The notes beneath the pieces were generated by a model. That model was not told the origin of the DNA. It ran no database searches and saw only the letters and a list, made by a program, of their open reading frames with translations. A program made the position numbers and the translations under genes. Positions 23,258-42,839 of a DNA stretch of 64,000 bases are shown piece after piece (position 1 is the stretch's first letter; each line of letters starts with the position of its first letter). The stretch is from an uncultured Bacillota bacterium (GTDB lineage Bacteria; Bacillota_I; Bacilli_A; RFN20; CAG-449), in contig CABUOQ010000001.1 in the NCBI GenBank assembly GCA_902493275.1, forward strand, positions 28,639 through 92,638, in the 5' to 3' direction.

Positions 23258-25978
23258 TCAACTTTTTGTAAAAGTTATATTTATATCGTCACCTGAATCA
23301 TAATCGGCAAAAGTTTCAGAAGGATCATATTGAGAAAGGACAATAAAATAAGTAATGTCTTTATTAAAGTTTCCATAAATCTCTGCATTAGAATCATCAG
23401 AATCATCATTTTCATTAATATCATATTCAATTAAATCTGAACTACTTGGATTAATAACATAGAGATAATTGTCAAACTCACTATTTAATTTAATTTTATA
23501 GTAACCACTTTCAGTTGGAGTCCATGTTAAAACCATAGAATTGTACTGACATAAATATGCTTTTAAAGAATAATTTGTAACTGAATTAATATGATAAATA
23601 TTTTCATATTTTGATAATGAATTATCTTCATTATTTTTAAACCCTTTTATAGGGGTTATAGATAGTTTCGTCTTTCCGGAAGCAGTTGAACTATATAATT
23701 TTATTTTCAAGACATAAGTTTTATTGGATTCTAAATTTTTATTAATAAATGAATTTAATTTATATCCTGAATCATCATCGTTAGCAATTAAAGTTTTTCC
23801 ATCCTCTTCATACAACCACATTTTGGTATCTATTCCACCAAACGTTTGTATTAATTTATCACCAGAATTATCAAAACTAATGTGGAAGATCCATTCTGTT
23901 CCCTGTGAAATAGCTAAGCTTTTTTCAAAATATCTTATATTATCTAATTCTAAATTGGTTTCTGCCATAGAAGGCTTAGAAAATTCATAGTAACTAGAAT
24001 AATATGGACCACTCTCTATACCAAGAGTAGCATATGATTGAATCATAACATAATACTTTGTACCTGTTGCCATAAGTATAGAGTCCCATTCACTTTGAGT
24101 TAAAGTATATGTGTTAGTAGTTATGTTATTCTTCTTTAATATCAAATTTTTGTTTAAATCATAAAAGTTTAATGTGAATTTATTATTGCAAAAACTATAT
24201 TTTACTCCATCTACAATAATACTTGTCCCTCCAACTTTCCAATTAAATGTTGGTAGTACAAAATAATTATCAGAAACATTAATTGAAATATTGTATGAGC
24301 TCAGTTTGAATCCTTCTAGCAATTTTCCTAAGTCAGAACGTGAAAAACTTAACTCACTATTATATAAAACATTAATAAAATCGTAAAAAAATTCTGGGTT
24401 GTTATCAACCATTAAGTTCCACAAATCCGTATCACTAATTGATAATTTATCACAATCTATAGAATTGTTTGAATCCCAAAGTCTATAAAGAAAACTTTCA
24501 ATAATAACTTCATCTGATTCGCCATTTATTTGATTATGAAATCCAAATGTATTAGTCATTTCCTCTAAACTTTGATCTATTCCATTATAAGAACTATATT
24601 TTACGTCTCCGACAACAGATATTTTTCTTAAGTCTTGTGGAAAAGTGCTTTGAGCAGTAATAGCAAAAAATGTAGGCCATGCCTCCTTCCAAGCAAGACC
24701 AATCGCATGAGTTTTTGCTTTCGCTAATTCTTGAGCGTCGATAATATATTCTTCACTATTCTGTTTTGCACTAATAATATTACTGAATAAATATTGGTAT
24801 AAACCATTATAAACTATAGCATGCTCACCAGAATAATTTTGTTGAAAAAAACATTTCTGTAAATGGTGGCCATATTCATGACCTATAACATCCCACGAAC
24901 CATGAACGGATGGAGAGTCATTTTTTCTATAAGACTCATTGGCCAAATAAATATTTTGCTCATTATTTAAATAATAACATCCATCATTTTCTGTAGGATA
25001 TACAATACCACATGTTTCTATGTAAACTCCATTGTTTAATGTTCTTGCATACTCAGAATATCTTTCCATTGCAGAAAAAATTTGCATTGCATATCCCAAA
25101 TCATCATGTTGCGCTCCAGTAAATGTTAGAGTGCCAAAGTCATAATTTGTATTAATTGAAAAATTTGTAAGTTTATTAGCACTTTCATACACATTTCCAT
25201 TTTTATTTATTACTTTTACCATTAAATTTTCAGCATAAATATGTATATAGCAATCACTACTTGCTAACAAACTACTATAATTAATATTAAAATATCCAGA
25301 AGAATTAGTATAAGTAAAATATGCAAATTGATTATGACCTAAATCTAATTTAACTTTTACCCCAATTAAAGGGTGAGAATTTAACTCATCATCCTCCCAT
25401 TTTAAATATCCATAAACTCTTCCAGAGAAACTAATTTTTTGAGGCTTATTAGTATCCATATCTTCAGACTCTGGCGTTACTCCTATATACGATGCATTAT
25501 CTACATCGTTATCCATATACTTTTGACCTGGAATATTTCCTACTAATTCCCAAGCTGAATAAAGCGACAATGAAGATATGGCATATTTATTGTCTTCACT
25601 TTTTGAAGAATAAACACTTCTTTTAATTGTCTCTTCTTCCAAAGAAAATGATATTTCTGTTTTTCCATCTTCATTAGGTAAAGTAAATTTTACATAACAT
25701 CCACTTATATCTGATGATATGATATCTAAACTTATATTACCTTCAAAATGTATTAAAGGAACAGCTTCAAAATCATAATTAATATTGCCAAAAAATGTGT
25801 TGTTATTTGAAACAGCATTCTCACCAAAATCAAATGTAATTGTATGATTGTTTCCCGTTCCTAAACTATAATTAACATTTTTAATTTCAGTTAAATTTAC
25901 TAAATTTTCATTGCTTACTGACGGATGAAAAGAAATACCCAAAAAAACCAACATTAATATTAAGAACTTTTTTAACAT
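23258..25978 (-). CDS. Large secreted protein (906 aa) with an HExxH zincin-like motif and a C-terminal pre-peptidase (PPC)-like domain; putative metallopeptidase
   Basis: SPI-type signal peptide MLKKFLILMLVFLGISFHPSVS. Motif ..SWDVIGHEYGHHLQ... A C-terminal roughly 110 aa region ..LYEEDGKTLIANDDDSGYKLNSF..YVLKIKLYS.. resembles PPC domains. Asn/Ser/Tyr-rich beta composition. Confidence 0.55.
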   Translation of the reverse strand: MLKKFLILMLVFLGISFHPSVSNENLVNLTEIKNVNYSLGTGNNHTITFDFGENAVSNNNTFFGNINYDFEAVPLIHFEGNISLDIISSDISGCYVKFTLPNEDGKTEISFSLEEETIKRSVYSSKSEDNKYAISSLSLYSAWELVGNIPGQKYMDNDVDNASYIGVTPESEDMDTNKPQKISFSGRVYGYLKWEDDELNSHPLIGVKVKLDLGHNQFAYFTYTNSSGYFNINYSSLLASSDCYIHIYAENLMVKVINKNGNVYESANKLTNFSINTNYDFGTLTFTGAQHDDLGYAMQIFSAMERYSEYARTLNNGVYIETCGIVYPTENDGCYYLNNEQNIYLANESYRKNDSPSVHGSWDVIGHEYGHHLQKCFFQQNYSGEHAIVYNGLYQYLFSNIISAKQNSEEYIIDAQELAKAKTHAIGLAWKEAWPTFFAITAQSTFPQDLRKISVVGDVKYSSYNGIDQSLEEMTNTFGFHNQINGESDEVIIESFLYRLWDSNNSIDCDKLSISDTDLWNLMVDNNPEFFYDFINVLYNSELSFSRSDLGKLLEGFKLSSYNISINVSDNYFVLPTFNWKVGGTSIIVDGVKYSFCNNKFTLNFYDLNKNLILKKNNITTNTYTLTQSEWDSILMATGTKYYVMIQSYATLGIESGPYYSSYYEFSKPSMAETNLELDNIRYFEKSLAISQGTEWIFHISFDNSGDKLIQTFGGIDTKMWLYEEDGKTLIANDDDSGYKLNSFINKNLESNKTYVLKIKLYSSTASGKTKLSITPIKGFKNNEDNSLSKYENIYHINSVTNYSLKAYLCQYNSMVLTWTPTESGYYKIKLNSEFDNYLYVINPSSSDLIEYDINENDDSDDSNAEIYGNFNKDITYFIVLSQYDPSETFADYDSGDDINITFTKS

Positions 25979-27218: not shown

Positions 27219-28100
27219 TTATAGATGTTCTTTGATGATTTTAATCATCGTATTTACATCATCTTCGTCTAACGCTGTATTAATTAATAATTGTTTAAGC
27301 GATTGTTTCTCATCAAATTCCAGTTGCGTAAGATAAAAAACAATCTCTCCGATTATCTCTGAGGAATAAAAATCAAATAAGGAATGTGGAAAAAATTTAA
27401 TTTCAACCGTATTTAAAATATCAATTGCTAAGGAAATAATAGATGGAGAAACACTTGCTCGTTGAATGTAATCAACACAATCTAAATATGCTTTTCTATC
27501 TAATGGATATGCTAGCTTAATCGGATTAATTACAAGTGTCTCTTTATCAGATATTTTCACCTTAAAATTTGAATCTATCTTTTGATCGATTAAAATATAT
27601 TCTAACAAAACTTTATAATCATATTTTTCATTTGAAATAAGATATTCGGAAACAACATCTAAATAGTTGCGAATATTAATTGATGAAAGGTATTTTAAAG
27701 CTTGACTAACACAATCAACATTCTGACTATATAAATCTTTTATAAGTGATTCACGAGTGTAGTCATCTTTTTTTATTGAAAAATAATTCTTTTTGATTTC
27801 TTCTTCTAACTCGTTCATAAAATCATCAACTGTTAATGAAATAAATGGAGCCTCTTGATATTCTTTCAATACTTCTAAAGCTTGGTTTGCATCATCTTTA
27901 GCAAGATAAAAACTCACATGTTTGCCAATCAATAATACCGGTTGTACTTTTAATAAATGTTCAGCATTATTATCGATAAAATCATGTAATTTATCTTCAT
28001 CAAGCATCATTATAATCACATCTAAAAGCTCAAATAGTGAGGAATCATCTTTTTTTAAGAGTAAATCTTTATATTTTTTTAATAGAACTTCATTATCCAT
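27219..28100 (-). CDS. Acidic cytoplasmic hypothetical protein (293 aa). Full-length member of the family whose 3' fragments appear at 20131 and 22257.
   Basis: Complete ORF with no signal peptide; its 3' end abuts the IS remnant end. Confidence 0.55.
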   Translation of the reverse strand: MDNEVLLKKYKDLLLKKDDSSLFELLDVIIMMLDEDKLHDFIDNNAEHLLKVQPVLLIGKHVSFYLAKDDANQALEVLKEYQEAPFISLTVDDFMNELEEEIKKNYFSIKKDDYTRESLIKDLYSQNVDCVSQALKYLSSINIRNYLDVVSEYLISNEKYDYKVLLEYILIDQKIDSNFKVKISDKETLVINPIKLAYPLDRKAYLDCVDYIQRASVSPSIISLAIDILNTVEIKFFPHSLFDFYSSEIIGEIVFYLTQLEFDEKQSLKQLLINTALDEDDVNTMIKIIKEHL

Positions 28101-28103
28101 TGA

Positions 28104-29072
28104 TTAATATATTTCCTTTACTTTTGCAATAAAAAAACTCAAAGTTTTCTCATGATAATATTCTCGTGCTGTCTTTTTGTCATCAGTAACATAAATTTGA
28201 TTTATATAAGGGCAATCTTTATAATATGAAGAAATAACTTTCATTGATAAAACATCACCAAATTCTGAATATTCTCTTTCAAAGCCATCATTATATATTA
28301 TACGGGCATCGCTTAAAGTACCATTAATGTATCTTTGCAATGTTGGGACTACGCCGCCTCTATAACCAAGTGTTGGATTACCTTCAACTGATAGACCATA
28401 TTTATTAGTAAATTGACTATAATATTCATCACTAGTAAAATATTTTGACATATCAAAACCATACAATACTTTTTCATTATTCTCAATGTAGTCATTAAAA
28501 AATAATTTCTTAAAGGAAGTACAATCACTACACGTTTCTAAATGGAAATAAACATCTATATCACCATTTGATGAAATTAATTTATTTAATTCATCCTCAT
28601 CATTTAACACATAAAAATTAGAAACGTTAATCTTAGAATTAATTAAATTATTAAACGCTATCGAAGAATTAAATATCTCACTATTTTTTTCATCATCAAA
28701 GCGCTCCTTAATATTACCATTTTCATAAAGAATAAGTGTTGGAGTTACTTTATATGGTGAAAAAGAATTATCAGGAGATAATCGCTCAGCATCAACGTTT
28801 ATGCCATATATTAAGCAGTGATTCTGTTTAATATATGAATTCAAAATATTTTCAAATGAATTACAGGAAAAACAACTGGGAGAATAAATAAATAACAAAA
28901 AAGTGTCTTCATTCATTATCTTCCCTTGCAATATATCTTTTGAAATATCAGCAAAGCTCTCATTAAATGCTGATCCTTGTATTGTAATCATATCTTTATT
29001 AGGCATGATACTTCCTTGTTTACATCCAGTTAAGCACATCAAAACCAAAAATGGAATAATCTTTTTTTTCAT
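28104..29072 (-). CDS. Lipoprotein with two thioredoxin-like CxxC domains (thiol-disulfide oxidoreductase-like)
   Basis: Lipobox LTGC; ..LFIYSPSCFSCNSF.. and ..DVYFHLETCSDCTSF.. CxxC motifs in a beta-strand-CxxC-helix context; 322 aa. Confidence 0.55.
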   Translation of the reverse strand: MKKKIIPFLVLMCLTGCKQGSIMPNKDMITIQGSAFNESFADISKDILQGKIMNEDTFLLFIYSPSCFSCNSFENILNSYIKQNHCLIYGINVDAERLSPDNSFSPYKVTPTLILYENGNIKERFDDEKNSEIFNSSIAFNNLINSKINVSNFYVLNDEDELNKLISSNGDIDVYFHLETCSDCTSFKKLFFNDYIENNEKVLYGFDMSKYFTSDEYYSQFTNKYGLSVEGNPTLGYRGGVVPTLQRYINGTLSDARIIYNDGFEREYSEFGDVLSMKVISSYYKDCPYINQIYVTDDKKTAREYYHEKTLSFFIAKVKEIY

Positions 29073-31131: not shown

Positions 31132-32511
31132 ATGACTATTATGTATTCAAAAAATATTTACAAAAAAATAACTTCTGAAAAAACAGAGTTAATTACTCAA
31201 TTCGGTGAGGATTATAAAGAATTCCTTTCTAAAGGTAAAACAGAAAGATTATGCGTTGAACAAGCTGAAAAAGCTGCGATTATTGCTGGATTTAAACCAC
31301 TTGACGCATTCAAAGAAACTGGATTAAAATCTGGTGATAAAGTCTATTTAAAAAATAAAAATAAGAACATCGTTTTATTTAAAATCGGCAGAAAAGCTTT
31401 AACTGCAGGAATGAGAATATTAGGAGCTCATATTGATTCACCACGTCTTGATGTCAAACAAAATCCTCTATATGAAAAAAATGGTTTTGCTTTATTAGAC
31501 ACCCATTACTATGGTGGAATAAAAAAATATCAATGGGTTACAATTCCTCTAGCCATTCATGGTGTAATTATTAAAAAAGACTTAACTGAAGTCAAAGTCG
31601 ATATCGGTGATAATGAAAATGATCCAGTATTTGGCATTTCTGATTTATTAATTCACCTTGCACAAGATCAATTACAAAAAACTGCTAGCAAAGTAATTGA
31701 AGGCGAAGACTTAGATTTAACCATCGCTTCTATTCCTCTTGATGGCGCAGAAAAAGAAGCTGTCAAAGCTAATGTTTTAAAACTTTTAAATGAAAAATAC
31801 GGAGTTGAAGAAGAAGATTTTCTCTCATCTGAATTAGAAATCGTTCCAGCTGGTAAAGCACGTGATTATGGACTAGATCGTTCGATGATTGCAGGATACG
31901 GACATGATGATCGCGTTTGTGCTTATACATCTTTAAGAGCAATATTAGATATCGGTGAAGTTGATGATACTGCTTGCTGTATCTTAGTTGATAAAGAAGA
32001 AATCGGATCAGTCGGCGCTACTGGCGCGCAATCATTATTCTTTGAAAACGCTATCGCTGAACTTTTATCTTTGATGGGTCAAACATCATACCTTGATTTG
32101 AAACACGCTTTAGAAAATGCCAAGATGTTATCAAGTGATGTTTCTGCTGGTTTTGATCCATTATACCCTTCGGTAAATGACCCTAAAAATGCTTGTTATT
32201 TAGGAAATGGTATCGTTTTTAATAAATATACGGGTTCACGTGGAAAATCTGGCTCAAATGATGCTAATCCAGAGTATTTTGCTTGGGTTAGAAATATCAT
32301 GGATAGTGCCAATGTTCACTTCCAAACCGCAGAATTAGGTCGTGTTGACCAAGGTGGCGGTGGAACAATCGCCTATATTTTGGGAAATTATAATATGAAC
32401 GTAGTAGATGCAGGAGTTGCAGTATTTAATATGCACTCTCCAATGGAAATTGTTTCTAAAGCTGACGTCTATGAAACTTATCTTGCTTATAAAGCATTCT
32501 TAGGTAATTAG
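31132..32511 (+). CDS. M18-family aminopeptidase
   Basis: 459 aa. GAHIDSPRLDVK (the M18 H-x-D-S-P motif), ..GYGHDDR.. and EEIGS metal-ligand blocks. Confidence 0.8.
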   Translation: MTIMYSKNIYKKITSEKTELITQFGEDYKEFLSKGKTERLCVEQAEKAAIIAGFKPLDAFKETGLKSGDKVYLKNKNKNIVLFKIGRKALTAGMRILGAHIDSPRLDVKQNPLYEKNGFALLDTHYYGGIKKYQWVTIPLAIHGVIIKKDLTEVKVDIGDNENDPVFGISDLLIHLAQDQLQKTASKVIEGEDLDLTIASIPLDGAEKEAVKANVLKLLNEKYGVEEEDFLSSELEIVPAGKARDYGLDRSMIAGYGHDDRVCAYTSLRAILDIGEVDDTACCILVDKEEIGSVGATGAQSLFFENAIAELLSLMGQTSYLDLKHALENAKMLSSDVSAGFDPLYPSVNDPKNACYLGNGIVFNKYTGSRGKSGSNDANPEYFAWVRNIMDSANVHFQTAELGRVDQGGGGTIAYILGNYNMNVVDAGVAVFNMHSPMEIVSKADVYETYLAYKAFLGN

Positions 32512-32514
32512 ACG

Positions 32515-33618
32515 ATGAAGTTTAAGAATAAATTATTTTCAATTGTTTCGATAGTTTTGCTATCTTCATGTGCAATTAATATCAATTTAGGAATCAATAG
32601 TTCTTCATCTAGTCAATCGCTTAGTAGTAACTCTTCAATTAGTGTTTCAACGGATGTTTCTTCTACTAATTCTAGCAATCAAGATAGTAGCAGTGAAATC
32701 AGTTCATCATCAATCGAATCTAGTAGCAGTTCTTCATCTGAAGTTTCTAGTTCATCATCAATTGAGTCTAGTAGCAGTTCTTCATCTAGTGAAGAATTAA
32801 CTTATGATCCATATACTGATGTCACTTTTGATGATTTTTATGCCTCTTATACCCCTGCCACTAGTTATAAAGATGCCTATTATCGTACACAACATGGATT
32901 TATGTCTGGATCAATCGCTGAAACTCAAGACGGATATTATCCTCACGCTAATAATAAATATACCGAAAATGATAAATATGTAAAAATTAGCGATGGTAAA
33001 TATACTTATCGTGATGATGGTGGCTATGAATCTTTTGTTATTAATGGCACCGATACTAAAATTTATTATGGTGGAGGTTATATTCTTTTAGAAGAAGTAG
33101 CCGCGTACATTCAAGCTTTTGGGGAAGTTCCACCAAATAATAACTACGATAAAGGTTCTTCTGGCAAACAAGAAGCCATTGCTACTTGGGGAAGATATGG
33201 AAGAGTTAATGTTGGATATTTTTCTGGCGATACCTCAAAATATAAATATGAACCACTCTTACCTGAATTAAGCACTAAATCTTATATTGAAACTGATATC
33301 GGAAGTTTAGGTGGATTTGATTGCAATGGCACGGTATCTCCTTATTACGATAATGGAAGAATTAATCGTGGTGTTTGTAGAATTGTCTATACTTCAACAT
33401 ATAAAAATGGAACGCCGATAAAAGACATAAAAGAGCGTCATGTTTTCTATACCTACAATCACTATAATGATTTCCAAGAATATCTTAATTATGACTGTGG
33501 ATGGGGCACTAGATTCGGTAATGAATCCGCTGGAAATAATTATAATTATTATAATCCATCTAATCCGCCATCTGATTATCCAAATGTAGTCTTAAAAAAA
33601 TTGAGCGAGGTTCTATAA
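32515..33618 (+). CDS. Lipoprotein with a Ser-rich linker and a C-terminal barnase-family (microbial RNase N1/T1 superfamily) ribonuclease domain
   Basis: Lipobox LSSC, then an approximately 75-aa Ser-rich low-complexity linker. Residues about 175-330 align with barnase: VAAYIQAFGEVPPNNNY..EAIATWG matches VADYLQTYHKLPDNYI..EAQALGW; SGDTSKYKYEPLLP matches GGDIFSNREGKLP (catalytic Glu); RINRGVCRIVYTST matches RNSDRILYSSD (Arg pair); HVFYTYNHYNDF matches WLIYKTTDHYQTF (catalytic His). Confidence 0.6.
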   Translation: MKFKNKLFSIVSIVLLSSCAININLGINSSSSSQSLSSNSSISVSTDVSSTNSSNQDSSSEISSSSIESSSSSSSEVSSSSSIESSSSSSSSEELTYDPYTDVTFDDFYASYTPATSYKDAYYRTQHGFMSGSIAETQDGYYPHANNKYTENDKYVKISDGKYTYRDDGGYESFVINGTDTKIYYGGGYILLEEVAAYIQAFGEVPPNNNYDKGSSGKQEAIATWGRYGRVNVGYFSGDTSKYKYEPLLPELSTKSYIETDIGSLGGFDCNGTVSPYYDNGRINRGVCRIVYTSTYKNGTPIKDIKERHVFYTYNHYNDFQEYLNYDCGWGTRFGNESAGNNYNYYNPSNPPSDYPNVVLKKLSEVL

Positions 33619-34848
33619 CGAACTTCGCTCTTTTGCTTGCGCTAACATTAATTTAATACGGTTTTCTTGATTGACTTTTGTTGCTCCTGGATCATAATCA
33701 ATAGCAACGATATTGGCTTGTGGATAATTCTTTTTTATCACTCTTTGCATACCTTTTGAGACAATGTGATTAGGTAAACATCCAAAGGGTTGACACGATA
33801 CAATATTTGGACATCCACTTTCAACAAGCATTGCCATTTCCGCTGGAATAAGCCATCCTTCGCCCATCACAACCCCTTCTGAAATAAATGTATTCGCCGC
33901 TTTTTTTAATTTTTCAAAATCATGAAAAGGCTCAAATGAACTATATTTACTCACGACCTTATTGACTTTCTTTTGCATAGAATACATGATTTTATATTCT
34001 AATTTATATATAAACGCCAGTTTATTTTTGTTTTTATATTGACGATGATTCCAAATGGTTGCATCGGCTGAATACATCACAAAATCCATCAATGAGGGCA
34101 CTACGACTTCACAATCTACACTATGTAAGAAATCTTCGAGATGATTATTGGCAAGTGGTGAATATTTTGCATATATTTCACCTACAATTCCCACCTTTAT
34201 CTTTGTTTCTTTCTTAGTTGGAATCGATGAAAAATCGATTGCAATTTCTTTGGCAATTCGATAAAGGTGGCGATACTTTTTATGATTTAAATATTCTTTT
34301 AATTTATCATTCCATTTATCTAACATTTTTTTACTATCGCCTTTATTTATCTCATAAGGTAATACTTGATTATAAAATGACATCAAAATATCCCCATAAA
34401 AAACGGATAATAACATTTCTAAAAGATTAGTTGTCGTTAACTTAAAGCCAGAATTTTCATCTTTTTCTAATCCAGAAAAATTTAACGAGATAACTGGAAT
34501 TTGTGGATAGACATTTGCGATGGCTTTTCTAATTAAGTTAATGTAATTAGATGCTCGACATCCGCCTCCAGTTTGAGTCATGATAAAGGCTACTTTATTT
34601 TCATCGTATTTACCACTTTTCATCGCATCGATAAATTGTCCAACAACTAATAACGCTGGATAACAAGCATCATTATGAACATTTTTCAAACCCTCATCGA
34701 TGACACTTCGAGATGAATTTCTAAGGCATTCAATCTTATAACCACTCTTTTCAAAAACATTTTTAAATAAGCCTAGATGGATTGGTAACATATCTGGGAC
34801 AAGTATAGTATGAGTTTGCTTCATTTGCTTAGTAAATTGCGGATACAT
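33613..34848 (-). CDS. 2-hydroxyacyl-CoA dehydratase-family protein (HgdA/HgdB-like component)
   Basis: 411 aa, HGD-D family N-terminal pattern; partner of the upstream activase-fusion gene. Confidence 0.65.
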   Translation of the reverse strand: MYPQFTKQMKQTHTILVPDMLPIHLGLFKNVFEKSGYKIECLRNSSRSVIDEGLKNVHNDACYPALLVVGQFIDAMKSGKYDENKVAFIMTQTGGGCRASNYINLIRKAIANVYPQIPVISLNFSGLEKDENSGFKLTTTNLLEMLLSVFYGDILMSFYNQVLPYEINKGDSKKMLDKWNDKLKEYLNHKKYRHLYRIAKEIAIDFSSIPTKKETKIKVGIVGEIYAKYSPLANNHLEDFLHSVDCEVVVPSLMDFVMYSADATIWNHRQYKNKNKLAFIYKLEYKIMYSMQKKVNKVVSKYSSFEPFHDFEKLKKAANTFISEGVVMGEGWLIPAEMAMLVESGCPNIVSCQPFGCLPNHIVSKGMQRVIKKNYPQANIVAIDYDPGATKVNQENRIKLMLAQAKERSSL

Positions 34849-34850
34849 TT

Positions 34851-37811
34851 TTACACCTCGACTTTTTCCTTGACACTTTCTTCATCCATCGCCGCTAATA
34901 GGCTTCTAATACGGATTTTTAAAGCCCCTAAATTATTAATTTCATCGATTTTTAATTGAGTATATAATTTATTATTACTCTCTAAAAAATAACGTAATTC
35001 ATCAGTAGTTATCGCATCTATTCCACATCCAAATGAAACCAATTGAATCATCTGCATATCACTTTGATTAATAACATAATTAGCCGCCTTAAATAGACGA
35101 GAATGATATGTCCATTGATTAAGAATTCCTAATGATGGTGTATGACTTTTATAAGCGAGATAATCCTCACTTAAAACCATCAATCCTAATGAAGATATAT
35201 AGCGAGAAATACCATGATTAATCTCTGGGTCGATGTGATATGGTCGACCCGCTAAAACAATAATCTTTTTATTATTTGCCCGAGCAAATGATAAATATTC
35301 ATCACCTTTAATAACGATTTTATGATGATAATTATCTAATTCTTGATAACCCTTATTAAGTGCTTCTTGTAATGCTTTCTTAGAAATTTTAAATTTTTTC
35401 AAGTAACGATATAACTCATTTGAAACTTGTTTTTTATTGTTTAAATCAAGATAAGGTGAGAAAAAATTCTTTTTATTTAATTCTTGCATATTCCCTTTTA
35501 GTGTTTCAGGATAATAGGCGACAACTGGACAGTTATAATGATTATCACTTTCATGTTCATCGTAGTTATATGTTTGACATGGATAAAATATAAAATCAAC
35601 CTTTTTTTCTAGTAATTCTTTTATATGACCATGCATTAATTTTGCCGGATAACATACCGTATCAGAAGCAATAGTATCTTGACCTTTATAGTATTTTTTT
35701 CGGCTTGAGACATTAGATGTGACGACTTTAAATCCTAATTCATTGAATAGTGTGGCAAATAATGGTAATTGCTCAAAATAATTTAATTGAAGAGGCAAAC
35801 CCACAACCGCAATATTTTGCTTATTAGTTAGGTGAGAATAATGATCAATTAGTTCTAGTTTGTAATCATAAAGCGATGGTAGACTTTCATTTTTATGTGT
35901 CACCGAAACACGATCACAGCGATTTCCGGAAATAAAACGCTTCCCGCCGTTAAAGTTGATGATATTTAAAGCGCAATGTGCAGTGCACGCATGACAAATC
36001 GAATTAATAGATTTATACGAAAAATTATTAAGTTCATCTAAAGATAGTAGTGTTTGCTCTTTCACGTGTTCGCTAGCGTATATTGCCGCGCCAAATGCTC
36101 CCATCAATTCGCTAATTTGAGGTCGAATTACATTATGATTTAGCTCTTTTTCAAAACTCCTTAATACGGCATCATTAAGAAATGTTCCACCTTGAGCAAC
36201 GATATTTTGTCCTAATTCTTCTATATTTTTAATCCTTATAACTTTATAGATGGCATTTTTAATTATCGATTGCGATAATCCTGCTGAAATATCATCAATT
36301 CCTGCTCCATCTTTTTGAGCTTGTTTAACTGATGAATTCATAAAAACGGTACATCTAGAACCTAATTCAACTGGATTTTTAGCAAAGAGTCCTAATTTTG
36401 CAAAATCTTTAATTGAATATCCTAAAGCCTCAGCAAATGATTGAATAAATGATCCACATCCTGAAGAACAAGCCTCATTTAAAACAATGGAGTCAATCGC
36501 TTTATTTTTTATCTTAAAACATTTAATATCTTGACCACCGATATCGATTATAAAATCGACATCTGGACAAAAATATGATGCCGCTTTAAAATGAGCGATA
36601 GTTTCCACAATTCCATTTTCTACTCCTAATCCAGCTCTAATCAATTCTTCACCATAGCCAGTGACTGCACTAGAAACGATTTCTAAACTACCATTTGACA
36701 TTTGATAAATATTTTTCAATTGTTCAACGATGATATCTAATGGACGTCCTTTATTAGAAACATAATAACTATATAAAATTTCATACTTTTCATTTAGAAG
36801 GACTAATTTTGTGGTGGTTGAACCTGCATCAATACCAAGATATGCCTTTCCTTTATAGTCTTGAAGATTACAATATTTTGCATCATTTCGATTATGACGA
36901 GCTACAAATTCTTCATATTCTTCCATATTTTTAAATAGTGGTGATGTAGTGATAATATTATTATCCATCTTGGATGAAGAAATCTTGTTAATGATTTCAC
37001 TTAGTGATATCTCCTTTTCAGATTTTCTCGCATATAAAGCTGCACCTAGAGCCATAAACACTGGTCCTTTTTCTGGAAATAATGCATGATCACCATCAAG
37101 ATTTAAAGTTTTAATAAATGCATTTTGAAGCGATTTTATAAATGATAAAGGTCCACCTAAAAACAATACATGGCCTTCAATTTTTCGTCCTTGAGCTAAG
37201 CCAGATACGGTTTGATCCACAACCGCTTGAAAAATTGAAGCGGCAATATCTTCAAGCATCGCTCCTTGATTGATTAAAGGTTGAATATCTGATTTAGCAA
37301 AGACTCCACATCGCGAAGCAATCGGATAAACTTTTTTCGCTTTTAAAGCAAGTTGATCCAATTTATCGACACTCACTCCTAATAAGGTTGCCATCTGATC
37401 GATAAATGCGCCTGTTCCCCCGGCACATGAGCCGTTCATTCTCTCTTCAACTCCATGACTTAAGAAAATTATTTTGGCATCTTCTCCGCCTAATTCCACA
37501 ACTACATCAGTTCGTGGATAAAAACTTTTAACTGCTAAAAAAGCCGAATGGACTTCTTGAACAAAGCCTAGATTTGATTTAGATGATAATCCTAATCCTG
37601 CCGATCCAGTAACTGAAACTTTACAAACAAAATCACCAAATTTATCTTTGACGACTTTTAATTCATTAATAACTGTTTCTTTTACTTCTGAAAAATGACG
37701 AACATAATTGTCATATAATATTTTATTTTCTTCATCAATTATTACAACTTTTACAGTTGTTGAACCGACATCAATTCCAAGATTAAATACTTTTTCCATT
37801 TGCATCTCCAA
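34851..37811 (-). CDS. Fusion protein: two BadF/BadG/BcrA/BcrD-type ATPase (CoA-substrate-specific enzyme activase) domains plus a dehydratase-like C-terminal domain
   Basis: Two ASKHA-type phosphate-1 motifs (LGIDVGSTTVKVV.. and LGIDAGSTTTKLV..) and Cys clusters for the bridging [4Fe-4S]; 986 aa. Confidence 0.75.
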   Translation of the reverse strand: MEMQMEKVFNLGIDVGSTTVKVVIIDEENKILYDNYVRHFSEVKETVINELKVVKDKFGDFVCKVSVTGSAGLGLSSKSNLGFVQEVHSAFLAVKSFYPRTDVVVELGGEDAKIIFLSHGVEERMNGSCAGGTGAFIDQMATLLGVSVDKLDQLALKAKKVYPIASRCGVFAKSDIQPLINQGAMLEDIAASIFQAVVDQTVSGLAQGRKIEGHVLFLGGPLSFIKSLQNAFIKTLNLDGDHALFPEKGPVFMALGAALYARKSEKEISLSEIINKISSSKMDNNIITTSPLFKNMEEYEEFVARHNRNDAKYCNLQDYKGKAYLGIDAGSTTTKLVLLNEKYEILYSYYVSNKGRPLDIIVEQLKNIYQMSNGSLEIVSSAVTGYGEELIRAGLGVENGIVETIAHFKAASYFCPDVDFIIDIGGQDIKCFKIKNKAIDSIVLNEACSSGCGSFIQSFAEALGYSIKDFAKLGLFAKNPVELGSRCTVFMNSSVKQAQKDGAGIDDISAGLSQSIIKNAIYKVIRIKNIEELGQNIVAQGGTFLNDAVLRSFEKELNHNVIRPQISELMGAFGAAIYASEHVKEQTLLSLDELNNFSYKSINSICHACTAHCALNIINFNGGKRFISGNRCDRVSVTHKNESLPSLYDYKLELIDHYSHLTNKQNIAVVGLPLQLNYFEQLPLFATLFNELGFKVVTSNVSSRKKYYKGQDTIASDTVCYPAKLMHGHIKELLEKKVDFIFYPCQTYNYDEHESDNHYNCPVVAYYPETLKGNMQELNKKNFFSPYLDLNNKKQVSNELYRYLKKFKISKKALQEALNKGYQELDNYHHKIVIKGDEYLSFARANNKKIIVLAGRPYHIDPEINHGISRYISSLGLMVLSEDYLAYKSHTPSLGILNQWTYHSRLFKAANYVINQSDMQMIQLVSFGCGIDAITTDELRYFLESNNKLYTQLKIDEINNLGALKIRIRSLLAAMDEESVKEKVEV

Positions 37812-37959: not shown

Positions 37960-39393
37960 TTATTCTTGAGGACTATCTTTTATCTCTTCAGCTTTTTTAT
38001 CGCGGAGGATTAAGTTCAATGCAATACCTAAAATCATCGACATCGCCGTTGAAGTAATTGTTGCTGAGCCAATGCTAATTGCTAAGCCACCAATTCCGCT
38101 TACTAAGATGACTGAGGCAACAATAACATTCTTTGTAATACTGAAATCCACCTTTTCATTTATTAACATTTTTACACCGCTAGAAGCGATAAAACCATAC
38201 AAAATCAAACTTACACCACCAGTAATACAAGCAGGAATAGTTGATAATAATAAGGTTAAAGGACCAAAAAATCCTAAAACTATTGAAAGAATAGCTGCGA
38301 CAATAATAACGTTAATTGAAGCGATTTTACTAACACCGATAACCGCTACATTTTCACCATATGTTGTATTTGCAGCACCGCATATTATACCAGAAGCGGC
38401 TGTGGCTAAACCATCTCCGATTAAAGTTTTGCTTAAACCCGGTTCATCATTTATTAAATCACGATCAATAATATTACCTAAGTTTTTGTGATCACCGATA
38501 TGTTCACAAATAGTTACTACTGCTACTGGAGCAAAGATAATAAATACTGATAATATTTGTCCAGCTTCAAATGGAACGGTTTGCTTAATAGCTCTTCCTA
38601 AAATAAAATCAGTGTTAATATATGTTGATATATTTCCCCAATCAGCATTAGTGAATGGTGAAAAATCAACAATTTGTAACCATGTTTGATTGCAAGCTAT
38701 TCCAATTAAAGTTAAGATAACCGCTAATATATATGCTCCACCCATTCCGCAAACAAATGGAATTAACGAAATCATCTTTTTACCATAGTGCGAACAAACC
38801 GCAGTTATTATTACTGCTACTAAGCCAATCAATACTGACATCAATGAATTACCGCCAGCGACAGCAACAGAAGAAATATTATTAACTGCTGAACCAGCCA
38901 AACCTAAACCAATAACCATAATTATTGGTCCAATTACAACTGGTGGTAATAATTTATTTAACCACTTTGTACCAACAAATTTAATTATTAAAGCAATAAC
39001 TACATAAATAACCCCAACAATTGCCATTCCGATAATTAATGCCCAGTAATTTAAATCATATTTTCCCGCTAATCCATTATCGATGACTCCTAAAGTAAGT
39101 GCTGATACCATCGGCGCCAGATACGCAAAGGATGAGCTTAAAAATACCGGCGATTTCTTTCGAGTAATAAATGTATAAATTATTGTTCCTACACCAGCAC
39201 CAATTAAAGTTGCACCAATCGGAAATGTTACTCCAACACCACCATTTGCAACTGAATTACCCATGATTAATGGCACTGTAATACATGCAACAAGCATGGC
39301 TAAAATATGTTGAATTGAGAATAAAATCCATTGTGAAAGTTTCTTTGGGTTCTCTTCAACATCAAAAACTAAATTTTTGTTCTTTTTCATCTT
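37960..39393 (-). CDS. NCS2-family nucleobase permease (uracil/xanthine permease-like)
   Basis: About 14 TM helices and NCS2 signature regions. The true start is probably MKKNKN at about 39393 (GGAGGT SD), not the ORF-track start at 39429. Confidence 0.8.
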   Translation of the reverse strand, partial: KMKKNKNLVFDVEENPKKLSQWILFSIQHILAMLVACITVPLIMGNSVANGGVGVTFPIGATLIGAGVGTIIYTFITRKKSPVFLSSSFAYLAPMVSALTLGVIDNGLAGKYDLNYWALIIGMAIVGVIYVVIALIIKFVGTKWLNKLLPPVVIGPIIMVIGLGLAGSAVNNISSVAVAGGNSLMSVLIGLVAVIITAVCSHYGKKMISLIPFVCGMGGAYILAVILTLIGIACNQTWLQIVDFSPFTNADWGNISTYINTDFILGRAIKQTVPFEAGQILSVFIIFAPVAVVTICEHIGDHKNLGNIIDRDLINDEPGLSKTLIGDGLATAASGIICGAANTTYGENVAVIGVSKIASINVIIVAAILSIVLGFFGPLTLLLSTIPACITGGVSLILYGFIASSGVKMLINEKVDFSITKNVIVASVILVSGIGGLAISIGSATITSTAMSMILGIALNLILRDKKAEEIKDSPQE

Positions 39394-39622
39394 TACCTCC
39401 CCCATATTGTCAAAAAAAAGACTTATCACCTAATGATGACAAGTCTATTAAATTAACAATAAATTTGAAAATAAAAACTTTCTGAGTATTCGCTTATTCT
39501 TAATGTATGTTGGCAACATCTTCATAAATGAACCTCCTAAAAATTTTTATCTTTTTTATTATATCATCGTATGAAGATTTGTAAACTATTTTTTTTATTA
39601 ATTTCAATCAACTAAATAAGTA

Positions 39623-41179
39623 CTAATTTTTTATGATTGTAACTGTACATTCTTCACTAGTTAAATTAGATACTGAAATTGTATATCCAACTTCGTTTCC
39701 AGCATTGAATCTTGTGCCGTTATTGAAGAAAGTAGAAGATGCTTGGAATTTTTTACTTCCAGTCCATAAAGTAGTAGAAGGATCAATATAACCGCCATAG
39801 CCATTATTGATTTTATTATTTCCACCTTGATCTAAAAGATGCAAATAACGATAGATTTTCTTATAAGCATTACTTAAATAAGAATTTGAATAAGAGTTTG
39901 AAGCTCCAACATAGTAAATATAATTACTATCGGTAATATCTATATCATCAGCATATGAGACAAAATTACCCATTGAATTTAACTTTACCAATCTTGCGTC
40001 AACATGATAGATCCTTAATCCATTATAATTATACATTTTGTCTCTTCCATTATATTGATGCTTAGCATCAATCTCATTTAAGCCTTGATTAGTATAGTAT
40101 TCAATAAAGAGATATTCATCAAAAATCGATTTATTCCAGTCATCATTAATGAGAATGGCTTCATCATATAAGGCGGAAGTTTTTAATTTGATGGTAGCAT
40201 CACCTTTGACATAATATGGATTTATCCATCCAAGAGCAAATTTAGAGTATGCATTTTGATCGCCGACATTGTATGATTGCATTTCTAATTCTCCTGCTGG
40301 ATTCCATGCATTGGTATCGTCATAGCAATAATAATCATCTAATCCAAGCATATGTCCGCTTTCATGAATATAAGTATGCGCATCGACTTTATTATAGTTA
40401 TAACCATCTTGATATTTATCATTCATAAACGCATAGCTAGCCCACATATAGGAATTGAATGCTGGTTTATTAGCATTAGGACTATAAAGATAATTACCTT
40501 GAGATGCTACGTGGCACCACGCCCAGTAGGCGGTATCAGATGTCATTTTATAATCATTAGAGTAAATGAAGATGGCATTATCAACATATCCATCACTATT
40601 AAGGTCATATTTTTTTAATAATGAGGCTTCAGTTGCATTATAATATTTAGAAATCACATAATTAGGCGCATCATTTCCATATGAGTCAAGAGCATTGATG
40701 GTCATATTTAAAGAATATACTGAACTTACTTCCCCAGTAATATTTAATTTACCATAGCTTGATTTATAGTAAAAAGAACTAACAGATTCATAAGCGGTAT
40801 CTTCACTTTTACCAAAAAATGCAGTATTGAGTTCATCTAACATTGTGGATGTCCATTTTGGACCATCTTTAAGTTCAACTGGAATTACTAAGAACTTTTG
40901 ATTACCAACGCTTTTTGTTGTATACCAACCTAATTGTGAGTTTGTATCAGTCATCGTATATTTAACATCATCGCGATTAATCTTTTCATAGTTTAATGCC
41001 TCATCTTTCGATGATACACTGCTAGATGAATTCACAACATTCGACGATGAAGAAATACTATTAAATTCTGATGAGTCGGTAGAAGATGTTTCAGATTGTG
41101 ATGTCCCTAAATTTATTTTTATTGTGCAACTACTCAATAATAATCCACCAAGTAAAATAATTATGCTTTTCTTTTTCAT
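39623..41179 (-). CDS. Lipoprotein zinc metalloprotease, M6 (immune inhibitor A)-like
   Basis: Lipobox LLSSC; HESGHMLGLDDYY matches the M6 HExxHxxGxxD signature; Ser-rich linker after the lipobox. Likely start MKKKSII.. at about 41179. Confidence 0.55.
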   Translation of the reverse strand: MKKKSIIILLGGLLLSSCTIKINLGTSQSETSSTDSSEFNSISSSSNVVNSSSSVSSKDEALNYEKINRDDVKYTMTDTNSQLGWYTTKSVGNQKFLVIPVELKDGPKWTSTMLDELNTAFFGKSEDTAYESVSSFYYKSSYGKLNITGEVSSVYSLNMTINALDSYGNDAPNYVISKYYNATEASLLKKYDLNSDGYVDNAIFIYSNDYKMTSDTAYWAWCHVASQGNYLYSPNANKPAFNSYMWASYAFMNDKYQDGYNYNKVDAHTYIHESGHMLGLDDYYCYDDTNAWNPAGELEMQSYNVGDQNAYSKFALGWINPYYVKGDATIKLKTSALYDEAILINDDWNKSIFDEYLFIEYYTNQGLNEIDAKHQYNGRDKMYNYNGLRIYHVDARLVKLNSMGNFVSYADDIDITDSNYIYYVGASNSYSNSYLSNAYKKIYRYLHLLDQGGNNKINNGYGGYIDPSTTLWTGSKKFQASSTFFNNGTRFNAGNEVGYTISVSNLTSEECTVTIIKN

Positions 41180-41198
41180 AAATAATTCCTCCAAAAAT

Positions 41199-42839
41199 TT
41201 AAATATTAGCATCATATAATGAATGAGCGATATAACTTAAGTGATCACCAGCTCTTTCAAGATTAGAGACTAAGTTAATAAAAATTGAATTAGATAATGG
41301 TGAACATTTTCCTTCTTCTAATCTTTTTATATGTGCACTAATTAATTCACTTCTTAATTTATCAATTTCATTTTCGATTTTATCAGATTGTTTTATTATC
41401 ACCTTTTCGTGTTTAGAAAATAATTTTTTTACATTTTCATATTGTTGATTGAGGTTCTCTTTTAATGATAATATTCCCGTTTCAGCTTCTTTTGTAAAAA
41501 CAAGATTTTCATCTAAACGCTTTTTCGTATATTTAATCATGTTATCAGCAATTTCCGCTTCACGGGAAAAATCAATTAATATACGATGCAGTGAAGCAAT
41601 AAATCTTTCATCTTCGGTATTGATATCTAAAGAAGAAGTTTTAAGCAGATAATTTAATATCTCCGTATTCATTTTATCAATATATGAAATGTTTTCATAT
41701 ATTTTATCTTCATCTTTTAATGAATTATTTAAAAAAGCGTCAATAGATAAATTTAAGCATTCTAATGACATTCTTCCTAAACGCAAAGTTTCTTTACCAG
41801 CTTGATCGATAGCGATAGATGGAGTTTTAAAGAAACGCTCATCAAGAGATGTTATCATTACATTATCCTTTTTATTAGGGATAAGTAGTGTTGCTATCTT
41901 AACAAATATATTTATGAAAGGCAAGAAAATTAGTGTTGAAATAATATTAAAGAAAGTATGGAACATCGCAATTTGGGTTCCAGGAATATTTGGGAACCAT
42001 CGCATAAAAGTATCGTGATTAAAATTAGGCCAACATATCAATAAAATAAAGAACATTGTCGAGCCAAATAAATTGAACAATAAGTGAATTAATGAAGCTC
42101 TTTTAGCGTTTGGTGTAGCGCCAATAGAAGAAGCTAAAGCGGTTATACATGTTCCAATATTCGTACCGAGAATTATATATAAAACCGCATTATAATTATC
42201 GGCACTACCAATACTTAATCCGCTCATAAGCATGGTTATTAATATTGTAGTTACTGCAGATGATGATTGCAATATCGCCGTAATTACCATTCCGACAAGT
42301 AAAAGTAAAAATGGATTATTTATTCCTGATAAAAGCTGCTGAATCTGCTTTGAATTATCAAAAGCCATCGCATCTGACATAAATTGTAAAGCTAAGAAAA
42401 CAAGTCCTAATCCAGCAAGAGACATAAATATATTTTTAGTCTTCTCATGTTTAGATAGCATATTTCCAAATAAACCTATGAAAGCTAATACCATTAAGAC
42501 TTCCGCAACTGGAATAGCATTTAAAGAAACAATCTGCGCAGTAATTGTCGTACCAATGTTAGCACCCATAATCATTGCTGTCGCTTGGAATAGATCCATA
42601 ATTCCGGCGTTAACAAATCCGACTACCATAACCGTTGCCGCGGATGATGATTGAATAATTGCCGTTATTAACGCTCCAATACCAACGCCAATAAAACGAT
42701 TTTTAGATGTCTTCTTAAAAAGTTTTTTTAAGCCAGAATTAGCCAGTTTTTCAATATTTTCAGATAGGATTTTAAATCCAATCAAAAACGCCCCCAAACC
42801 GGCCAATAATTTAACTATTGCAATGACATAATCCCACAT
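41199..42839 (-). CDS. Na+/phosphate cotransporter family protein with C-terminal PhoU-like domains
   Basis: Duplicated NptA-type TM repeats (..IQSSSAATVMVVGFV.. and ..LQSSSAVTTILI..) plus a PhoU-like coiled region; 546 aa. Confidence 0.8.
   Translation of the reverse strand: MWDYVIAIVKLLAGLGAFLIGFKILSENIEKLANSGLKKLFKKTSKNRFIGVGIGALITAIIQSSSAATVMVVGFVNAGIMDLFQATAMIMGANIGTTITAQIVSLNAIPVAEVLMVLAFIGLFGNMLSKHEKTKNIFMSLAGLGLVFLALQFMSDAMAFDNSKQIQQLLSGINNPFLLLLVGMVITAILQSSSAVTTILITMLMSGLSIGSADNYNAVLYIILGTNIGTCITALASSIGATPNAKRASLIHLLFNLFGSTMFFILLICWPNFNHDTFMRWFPNIPGTQIAMFHTFFNIISTLIFLPFINIFVKIATLLIPNKKDNVMITSLDERFFKTPSIAIDQAGKETLRLGRMSLECLNLSIDAFLNNSLKDEDKIYENISYIDKMNTEILNYLLKTSSLDINTEDERFIASLHRILIDFSREAEIADNMIKYTKKRLDENLVFTKEAETGILSLKENLNQQYENVKKLFSKHEKVIIKQSDKIENEIDKLRSELISAHIKRLEEGKCSPLSNSIFINLVSNLERAGDHLSYIAHSLYDANI

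Follow-up and report, generated by a model that had tools for sequence, protein, structure and literature searches.

The window analysed here, a stretch of 64,000 nucleotides (nt) on contig CABUOQ010000001.1 of an uncultured Bacillota bacterium, contains at positions 32515-33618 of the forward strand an open reading frame (ORF) that starts with ATG and encodes 367 amino acids (aa). We describe its product as a predicted lipoprotein ribonuclease (RNase) precursor, the C-terminal part of which is, judged by profile alignment, a distant homologue of barnase. An original prediction made from the letters alone had already seen in it a barnase-family RNase behind a lipoprotein anchor and a Ser-rich stalk, and had the ORF itself (367 aa, ATG start) right. 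The identical protein (P0001) is found on several public contigs, where the neighbouring genes are unchanged. The gene, its parts and its immediate surroundings are laid out as follows.

31132-32511, forward strand: M18 aminopeptidase, the upstream gene (PF02127 Peptidase_M18, E = 9.4e-91)
32515-33618, forward strand: whole ORF of the predicted lipoprotein RNase precursor, 367 aa plus stop codon
32515-32571, forward strand: signal peptide with lipobox LSSC, residues 1-19, the Cys19 codon lying at 32569-32571
32572-32793, forward strand: Ser-rich linker or stalk, residues 20-93, with Ser at 43 of 74 positions (58%)
32701-32796, forward strand: tandem repeat of two 48-nt units that match at 38 of 48 nt, each coding for 16 aa (e.g. 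SSSSIESSSSSSSEVS)
32794-33078, forward strand: family-specific N-terminal sub-domain, residues 94-188 (95 aa), modelled by AlphaFold2 (AF2) as two short helices and a 4-stranded beta-meander, predicted local distance difference test (pLDDT) 83-98
33079-33483, forward strand: barnase-like catalytic core, residues ~189-323, hhalign probability 97.6% against the PF00545 profile, with two insertions relative to barnase
33289-33297, forward strand: codons E259-T260-D261, E259 being the equivalent of barnase Glu73 (general base) and D261 of Asp75, invariant in 120/120 relatives
33367-33381, forward strand: codons R285 to R289 (RGVCR), R285 and R289 being the equivalents of Arg83 and Arg87, invariant in 120/120
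33460-33465, forward strand: codons H316-Y317, equivalents of His102 (general acid) and Tyr103, invariant in 120/120
33484-33615, forward strand: family-specific C-terminal tail, residues 324-367 (44 aa), with a conserved GWGxRFGN motif, AF2 pLDDT 95-97
33603-33630, forward strand: terminator-like hairpin between the convergent genes, over the RNase stop codon, with an 11 bp stem (6 G-C pairs) followed by a T-run

The conserved unit is a module of 274 aa (residues 94-367), in which the barnase-like core is framed by the N-terminal sub-domain and the tail. Both extensions were overlooked in the original prediction, and both accompany the core in essentially all relatives found. The module retrieves more than 1,400 public proteins, nearly all of them covering the whole 274 aa and almost none carrying a Pfam annotation or a name, and a search with a hidden Markov model against 1.84 billion cluster representatives returned 427 clusters at E <= 1e-3 and 202 at E <= 1e-30. 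We found no description of this RNase family in the literature. In data with one genome per species a relative is encoded at 419 loci, with one copy of the RNase homologue per locus. All neighbourhood counts given below cover the best 80 of these 419 loci; many of them come from closely related metagenome-assembled genomes (MAGs), and the counts are not independent. These 80 loci are assigned to Anaeroplasmataceae, Acholeplasmatales, "Bacilli" and mislabelled "Clostridia" or "Eubacteriales" MAGs from gut and rumen, and Anaeroplasma bactoclasticum ATCC 27112 (NZ_QXEV01) is a cultured carrier; the complete chromosome OX437086.1 and the record JAKVOO010000001.1 carry the family as well. The host lineages have small genomes and a minimal metabolism, with peptidoglycan-deficient and thin-walled species mixed among them (PMC10868615).

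Searches with the single sequence against Pfam (full protein, 274-aa module and a 182-aa C-terminal piece), against NCBIfam (full protein) and against the sequences of the Protein Data Bank (PDB; full protein and module) gave nothing significant, and removing the poly-Ser stretch did not rescue the single-sequence searches. Pairwise BLASTP against barnase produced a full-length alignment with 23% identity and E = 8e-4 for one comparison, the identity to barnase being about 23-27% overall. Among the relatives, PF00545 was the commonest Pfam match (23 of 50, best E = 8.9e-4, all below threshold), and barnase came out on top when the family profile was compared with PDB sequences (E = 0.45). Profile-profile alignment with hhalign gave the family core a probability of 87-90% against barnase alone, 94% against barnase, binase and RNase Sa together, and 97.6% against a reference profile of 115 genuine PF00545 proteins gathered in this analysis (E = 3e-12 over 104 columns, barnase residues 5-108). 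The controls stayed at or below 0.5% for reversed or shuffled barnase, at or below 1.9% for ten column-shuffled profiles and at 0.1% for the reversed profile. RNase Sa alone matched weakly (E = 0.005, 50 columns), with its catalytic Glu, Arg-Arg and His falling in the same columns. By its sequence, then, the module is a distant barnase-type (N1/T1) RNase homologue lying below the Pfam threshold, and the family identity put forward originally is upheld by profile homology over the whole domain and by a conserved catalytic set. Its borders had to be redrawn: the blocks of alignment to barnase that had been noticed in the C-terminal ~155 aa are real (97.6% against at most 1.9% in the controls), but the conserved unit comprises 274 aa and the core residues ~189-323.

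In the alignment with the 115-protein PF00545 profile, barnase Glu73, Asp75, Arg83, Arg87, His102 and Tyr103 correspond to E259, D261, R285, R289, H316 and Y317, each of which is invariant in all 120 relatives over which invariance was scored, at an overall identity of about 45-55%. The equivalents of Glu73, the Arg83/Arg87 pair and His102 had been named correctly from the single sequence, and the buried Asp75-Arg83 pair has its counterpart in D261 and R285, both likewise invariant. The equivalent of barnase Glu60, E246, is Glu in 113 of the 120 and is followed by a conserved P-x-L-P motif, while K213, which is Lys in 104 of the 120, sits one column off barnase Lys27, which stabilises the transition state, in an uncertain loop alignment. 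The base-recognition loop (barnase Ser57-Asn58-Arg59-Glu60) reads FSGDTSKYKYEP here and is placed differently by two alignments. The module (residues 94-367, 32794-33615) is also unusually rich in Tyr (13.5%).

The AF2 model of the 274-aa module is a single compact globule (pLDDT 94.3, predicted template modelling score (pTM) 0.93). From module residue 99 onwards, the core consists of two helices followed by five beta-strands, and under the profile alignment these elements fall one-to-one on barnase alpha1, alpha2/3 and beta1-5, the Glu lying within beta2, the second Arg where beta3 begins and the His in the beta4-beta5 loop. The predicted barnase alpha+beta fold is thus supported by topology together with profile alignment and not by superposition. 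Relative to barnase, the core carries insertions of about 16 and 12 aa. The N-terminal sub-domain has three invariant residues (R124, S131 and G132) and a near-invariant H127, the tail has invariant F334 and G335 and a Tyr at position 355 in 118 of 120 relatives, and for neither extension was there a Pfam, PDB or Foldseek match. When the core was modelled without its extensions the pLDDT was 78, compared to 94 for the full module, which suggests that the flanking segments pack tightly against the core and are integrated with it. The family can be described as a divergent and so far unannotated barnase subfamily whose members carry two obligatory extra sub-domains, usually have a predicted lipid anchor and lack a linked barstar.

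The N-terminus of the protein (MKFKNKLFSIVSIVLLSSC) has a basic start with three lysines, a hydrophobic stretch and a lipobox L-S-S-C with Cys19, and agrees with the pattern [LVI][ASTVI][GAS]C (here LSSC) behind a basic n-region (MKFKNK) and a hydrophobic h-region (LFSIVSIVL). The Cys that ends the signal peptide is shared by at least 90% of 50 aligned relatives, and a strict lipobox motif is present in 107 of 120, most of the others having near-variants. A lipobox lipoprotein with a Ser-rich stalk had been predicted, and with Cys19 and a linker of 74 aa (58% Ser) this is what we find. A lipid anchor is nothing unusual, as a lipobox-like motif (e.g. LFAGCS, LFTGCS) is also seen in 48 of the 115 canonical barnase homologues, most of these 48 being from Paenibacillus; going by these motifs, many 'secreted' barnase-type RNases may be lipoproteins. 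Within the family, the linkers that follow the signal range from 21 to 191 aa and are variable in composition, or are replaced by extra domains. Strains that are more than 90% identical elsewhere have 1, 2 or 3 units of the 16-aa repeat, giving proteins of 351, 367 or 383 aa (P0001, P0122, P0126), so that the stalk changes in length by whole units, presumably via slippage or recombination. Tandem Repeats Finder gave a period of 27 with 63% matches in this region and did not report the 48-nt unit, which was found by direct comparison and is confirmed by the strain variants.

The RNase gene directly follows the M18 aminopeptidase gene, as had been noted from the letters and is now backed by the PF02127 match, and with only 3 nt between the stop codon of the one and the start codon of the other the two genes are probable operon partners. 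On the other side, a convergent gene (33613-34848) overlaps the RNase stop codon; the hairpin at 33603-33630, called by a consensus pattern scan, is a candidate terminator. A promoter scan returned 26 sites where 25.1 were expected from shuffled sequence, and hence no excess. All small ORFs between 31048 and 34850 are nested in the large genes in other frames, and the flanking genes, 3 nt away or overlapping, leave no space in which a barstar gene could lie.

Our search for barstar extended over the 64-kb window and over 5 kb to either side of the gene at the 80 related loci. In the window's 51 small ORFs Pfam gave no Barstar match at E < 0.0077, and phmmer with barstar as the query found nothing among the ORFs of the 80 loci or within 11 kb to either side of the window gene. 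No small ORF recurs beside the RNase gene at the 80 related loci, and Barstar was not recurrent in Pfam among 76 small flanking ORFs from 50 loci, where the recurrent families were thymidine kinase (9), ribosomal protein L27 (3) and MazG-like proteins (3). That no barstar-like gene lies nearby, as stated originally, is therefore confirmed, and since it applies to the window as well as to the 80 related loci, the absence characterises the family as a whole. It is genuine, though not as unusual as had been supposed. That an inhibitor is normally encoded together with a barnase-type enzyme, as had been assumed, is correct insofar as simple barnase-barstar gene pairs are widespread (PMC3482391), but the genes for barnase and binase are unlinked to barstar, which lies elsewhere, and an RNase-inhibitor operon has been termed 'unique' to the B. 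licheniformis enzyme (PMC5021464). The significance of a missing linked barstar is limited, because barnase and binase themselves are unlinked to it.

Many relatives have the module at the C-terminus of long proteins (500-1038 aa). In the 10 longest, Pfam recognises only OB-fold, Big_3 (Ig-like), Flg_new (Listeria-Bacteroides repeats) and Metallophos with 5_nucleotid_C, the OB-fold nucleic-acid-binding domains occurring in the long relatives P0328, P0315, P0316 and P0293 and also in P0106. The longest of them, P0328 (1038 aa), unites Metallophos plus 5_nucleotid_C, an OB-fold, the RNase module and a Thr-Pro linker in one lipoprotein, and a second OB-fold-like region can be seen by eye. Its Metallophos/5'-nucleotidase-type phosphoesterase would process the 2',3'-cyclic and 3'-phosphate products of the RNase, and by domain content this one polypeptide seems to unite the entire chain of RNA-to-nucleoside degradation at the surface.

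Genes in the neighbourhood of the RNase homologue in subsets of the 80 loci encode SurE (16), a DHH/DHHA1 phosphoesterase (17), an ExoIII-type nuclease (10) and peptidases, in addition to the thymidine kinase (9) and MazG-like (3) genes. The RNase homologue of A. bactoclasticum is closely preceded by a gene for a MazG-like nucleotide pyrophosphohydrolase (L008 3639-3965, forward strand), an arrangement that recurs at two other loci and forms another link to nucleotide metabolism. No operon partner is conserved across the family at the 80 loci, the linkage to an M18 aminopeptidase being specific to this organism. The window also encodes, 4-8 kb away from the RNase gene, a permease of the xanthine/uracil family (37960-39429) and a Na/Pi cotransporter that has PhoU domains (41199-42839); they provide weak context for a role in salvage.

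A large lipoprotein (298-1195 aa, median 923) is encoded at 26 of the 80 loci, in 23 of the 26 directly upstream of the RNase homologue and on the same strand. The 1195-aa copy (L024 807-4394, forward strand) has no Pfam match, repeats a Cys/His motif (PPHEHNFVEGKCECGETDPNY) several times and contains stretches that look OB-fold-like by eye; it may be another nucleic-acid-handling surface protein. Cys/His-rich modules like those in the L024 protein also occur within the RNase family, where short, zinc-ribbon-like versions (e.g. CxHDY...C...C..C) replace the Ser/Thr linker in P0013, P0083 and P0026, and they may represent a spacer element common to surface proteins of these lineages.

Among the remaining genes of the window, two adjacent CoA-enzyme-activase-type genes lie convergent to the RNase gene (33613-37811, reverse strand), encoding a 986-aa protein with BcrAD_BadFG ATPase and DUF2229 domains and a 411-aa DUF2229 protein; they appear to be unrelated to the RNase. 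A 322-aa predicted lipoprotein (28104-29072, reverse strand), whose signal ends in LTGC, shows weak thioredoxin-like matches (PF13098 and PF00085, E about 2e-5 to 3e-5) and may be an extracytoplasmic thiol-disulfide oxidoreductase. The products of 23258-25978, 27219-28100 and 39623-41215 (all reverse strand; 906, 293 and 530 aa) gave no Pfam match at the thresholds used.

The reading we favour, with a probability of roughly two in three, is that the protein is a Sec-exported, lipid-anchored endoribonuclease which degrades extracellular RNA for the salvage of nucleosides and phosphate. What we observe is the architecture of the protein, its homology, a set of catalytic residues that does not vary and the lack of a linked inhibitor; we infer an enzymatic activity, a surface location, a physiological role and a way of avoiding self-toxicity that might fit together in the following manner. 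After export and cleavage, Cys19 would be lipid-modified and the protein held on the outer face of the membrane, where the flexible Ser-rich stalk would keep the 274-aa catalytic module off the membrane. Within the module, the N-terminal sub-domain and the tail would wrap around the core and be integral to the fold. Glu259 would act as the general base and His316 as the general acid, with Arg285 and Arg289 (plus Lys213) holding the phosphate, so that RNA would be cut by transesterification to 2',3'-cyclic and then 3'-phosphate ends. The tethered RNase would break down extracellular RNA in the gut or rumen, and phosphoesterases, nucleobase or nucleoside permeases and salvage enzymes would then recover nucleosides and phosphate for this small-genome organism. 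Self-intoxication might be avoided mainly because the enzyme would fold only after export, and any cytoplasmic inhibitor, if one exists, would be encoded elsewhere. Such a role would be in line with the use of lipoprotein nucleases for nucleotide salvage in Mollicutes (PMC11729948, PMC12115388) and with the induction of Bacillus barnase-type RNases by phosphate starvation (PMC5021464).

Several observations weigh against reading the protein as a barnase-type salvage enzyme. The profile search with PF00545 that had been proposed as a check gave no match to this protein at any reported E-value and thus did not reach the gathering threshold, and the relatives, too, stay under the gathering score (P0315: 20.5 bits against a cut-off of 24). 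Our main caveat is that the support for the fold comes from topology and profile alignment and not from superposition; two Foldseek searches against the PDB returned no significant structural match. The guanine-recognition loop is ~6-7 residues longer than that of barnase, and the module is acidic (isoelectric point (pI) 4.9), in contrast to the basic barnase and binase. Moreover, salvage genes are neighbours of the RNase homologue at only some of the loci, many of these being from closely related MAGs, and this window has none of these neighbours, the immediate partner here being the aminopeptidase. The Foldseek result and the lack of above-threshold Pfam or PDB sequence matches would fit a module with a different fold and a similarity to barnase that is due to chance or convergence. 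We consider this extremely unlikely in view of the full-length 97.6% profile-profile match with its clean controls, the agreement with barnase in order and position of the secondary-structure elements, and the rank of PF00545 as the most frequent sub-threshold Pfam match among the relatives; RNase Sa independently puts its catalytic residues in the same columns. The acidic pI, the Tyr content, the large segments inserted into or added to the barnase domain and the failure of Foldseek to return an RNase match might instead point to a barnase-derived binding module, i.e. a surface RNA- or nucleotide-binding protein or an adhesin in which catalysis has been lost. This is very unlikely as well, since it is difficult to see why six active-site equivalents should be invariant in all 120 sequences, at an overall identity of only ~45-55%, if catalysis had been lost. 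RNase Sa is an acidic N1/T1 enzyme that is fully active, and the acidic pI is therefore no argument against activity.

If the module is indeed a catalytic RNase, it could still serve as a weapon or effector, displayed on the surface or released as a Tox-Barnase-like toxic RNase against bacteria or host cells. The carrier A. bactoclasticum is a bacteriolytic mollicute, and the stalk varies in length among strains, as is often the case in surface molecules under selection. The C-terminal position of the module in the long relatives (500-1038 aa) recalls barnase-clade domains that serve as C-terminal modules of polymorphic toxins (PMC3482391). We nevertheless regard this function as unlikely. The 10 longest relatives lack LXG, RHS, filamentous-haemagglutinin, HINT or other delivery or processing domains, and neither an immunity-type gene downstream nor a recurrent small neighbour is present at the 80 loci, although Imm-Barstar is the specific partner of Tox-Barnase (PMC3482391). 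There is one copy per locus with no cassette arrays, the 274-aa module is conserved throughout (about 45-55% identity) and not polymorphic, and a lipid anchor gives no obvious route into a target cell. A polymorphic toxin or contact weapon was rejected on architecture (no delivery domains) and neighbourhood (no immunity gene), whereas the OB-fold domains, the 5'-nucleotidase-type fusion and the nucleotide-salvage neighbours speak for RNA scavenging; of the three functions originally offered, it is nutrient scavenging that these data favour. A further possibility concerns self-protection, with the N-terminal sub-domain or the tail replacing barstar as a built-in inhibitor or folding gate until export or processing. 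The family would then be a barstar-independent barnase-type lineage in which an invariant extension serves as a safety device, by blocking the active site or by allowing folding only after export. We find this doubtful, even if it would account for the lack of a linked barstar in the window and the 80 relatives, for the presence of the extensions with their invariant residues (R124, S131, G132, F334, G335) in nearly every relative, and for their tight integration with a core that loses confidence on its own (pLDDT 78 against 94), since the single globule with a pTM of 0.93 fits structural decoration equally. A resemblance of the N-terminal sub-domain or the tail to barstar was rejected at the sequence level, the comparison giving 0.1%. 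As the barstar of barnase and binase is unlinked but present elsewhere, a distally encoded inhibitor is the simpler assumption. If a built-in device did exist, small-genome gut bacteria would have solved the self-toxicity of barnase without a separate inhibitor protein.

As a putative surface RNase for RNA salvage, the protein can be placed next to several known systems. With barnase and binase (B. amyloliquefaciens and B. pumilus; secreted, guanyl-preferring N1/T1 enzymes of PF00545) it is homologous over essentially the whole barnase domain, sharing the Glu/His pair, the Arg pair, the equivalents of Asp75 and Tyr103 and the E60-x-x-L-P motif, as well as export by an N-terminal signal and an RNase gene that does not adjoin an inhibitor gene. 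Compared to them, the family adds the 95-aa N-terminal sub-domain, the 44-aa tail, the ~16- and ~12-aa insertions and a longer recognition loop; its module is acidic and not basic, and a predicted tether of lipid and stalk takes the place of release. The lipobox-bearing canonical homologues, mainly from Paenibacillus (P0178, P0194, P0255), likewise have the RNase behind a lipoprotein signal, but they measure ~145 aa, are 60-75% identical to barnase, pass PF00545 and are devoid of the long stalk and the extra sub-domains. RNase Sa from Streptomyces aureofaciens is acidic like the family and has Glu54, Arg65, Arg69 and His85 in the same family columns, but lacks the N-terminal helices of barnase, which this family has kept. 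YhcR/YfkN-type proteins of Bacillus subtilis are surface nuclease-nucleotidase proteins whose nuclease module is SNase-type. Relatives such as P0328 resemble them in joining OB-fold, nuclease and Metallophos/5'-nucleotidase on an exported protein, and differ from them in the barnase-type nuclease, the window protein consisting of stalk and RNase module only. The Tox-Barnase/Imm-Barstar systems (Zhang et al. 2012, PMC3482391) also have a barnase-clade domain at the C-terminus of a longer exported protein, but the delivery or processing domains, adjacent immunity gene and polymorphic cassettes are absent from this family. In Mollicutes, the nucleases MnuA and MAG_5040 (SNase-type) and the 5'-nucleotidase of Mycoplasma bovis are surface salvage enzymes that are likewise anchored as lipoproteins, in hosts with small genomes and little or no wall (PMC11729948, PMC3585158, PMC12115388). 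These nucleases differ in having SNase or EEP folds, in being metal-dependent and in being mostly DNases or sugar-nonspecific, and a 2025 review of mycoplasma nucleases makes no mention of barnase or any RNase. By analogy, the family may thus be likened to barnase and binase in its chemistry and to the Mollicute surface nucleases in its physiology.

The finding fills an annotation gap and overturns no expectation. Standard annotation misses this branch of the family of barnase, a textbook protein, and once it is recognised, a conserved surface enzyme could be assigned in hundreds of uncultured Mollicute-related species from gut and rumen. In practical terms the yield is modest and would consist of a new Pfam-type family definition and an enzyme that is testable in the cultured A. 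bactoclasticum ATCC 27112. The family exemplifies the acquisition of two obligatory extra sub-domains by a barnase core, and is a natural test case of a barnase-type enzyme that is tolerated although no barstar is linked to it. The surface nucleases of the Mollicutes, which so far comprise DNases and sugar-nonspecific nucleases, would be joined by an RNase, and the family suggests that these organisms use extracellular RNA as a nutrient.

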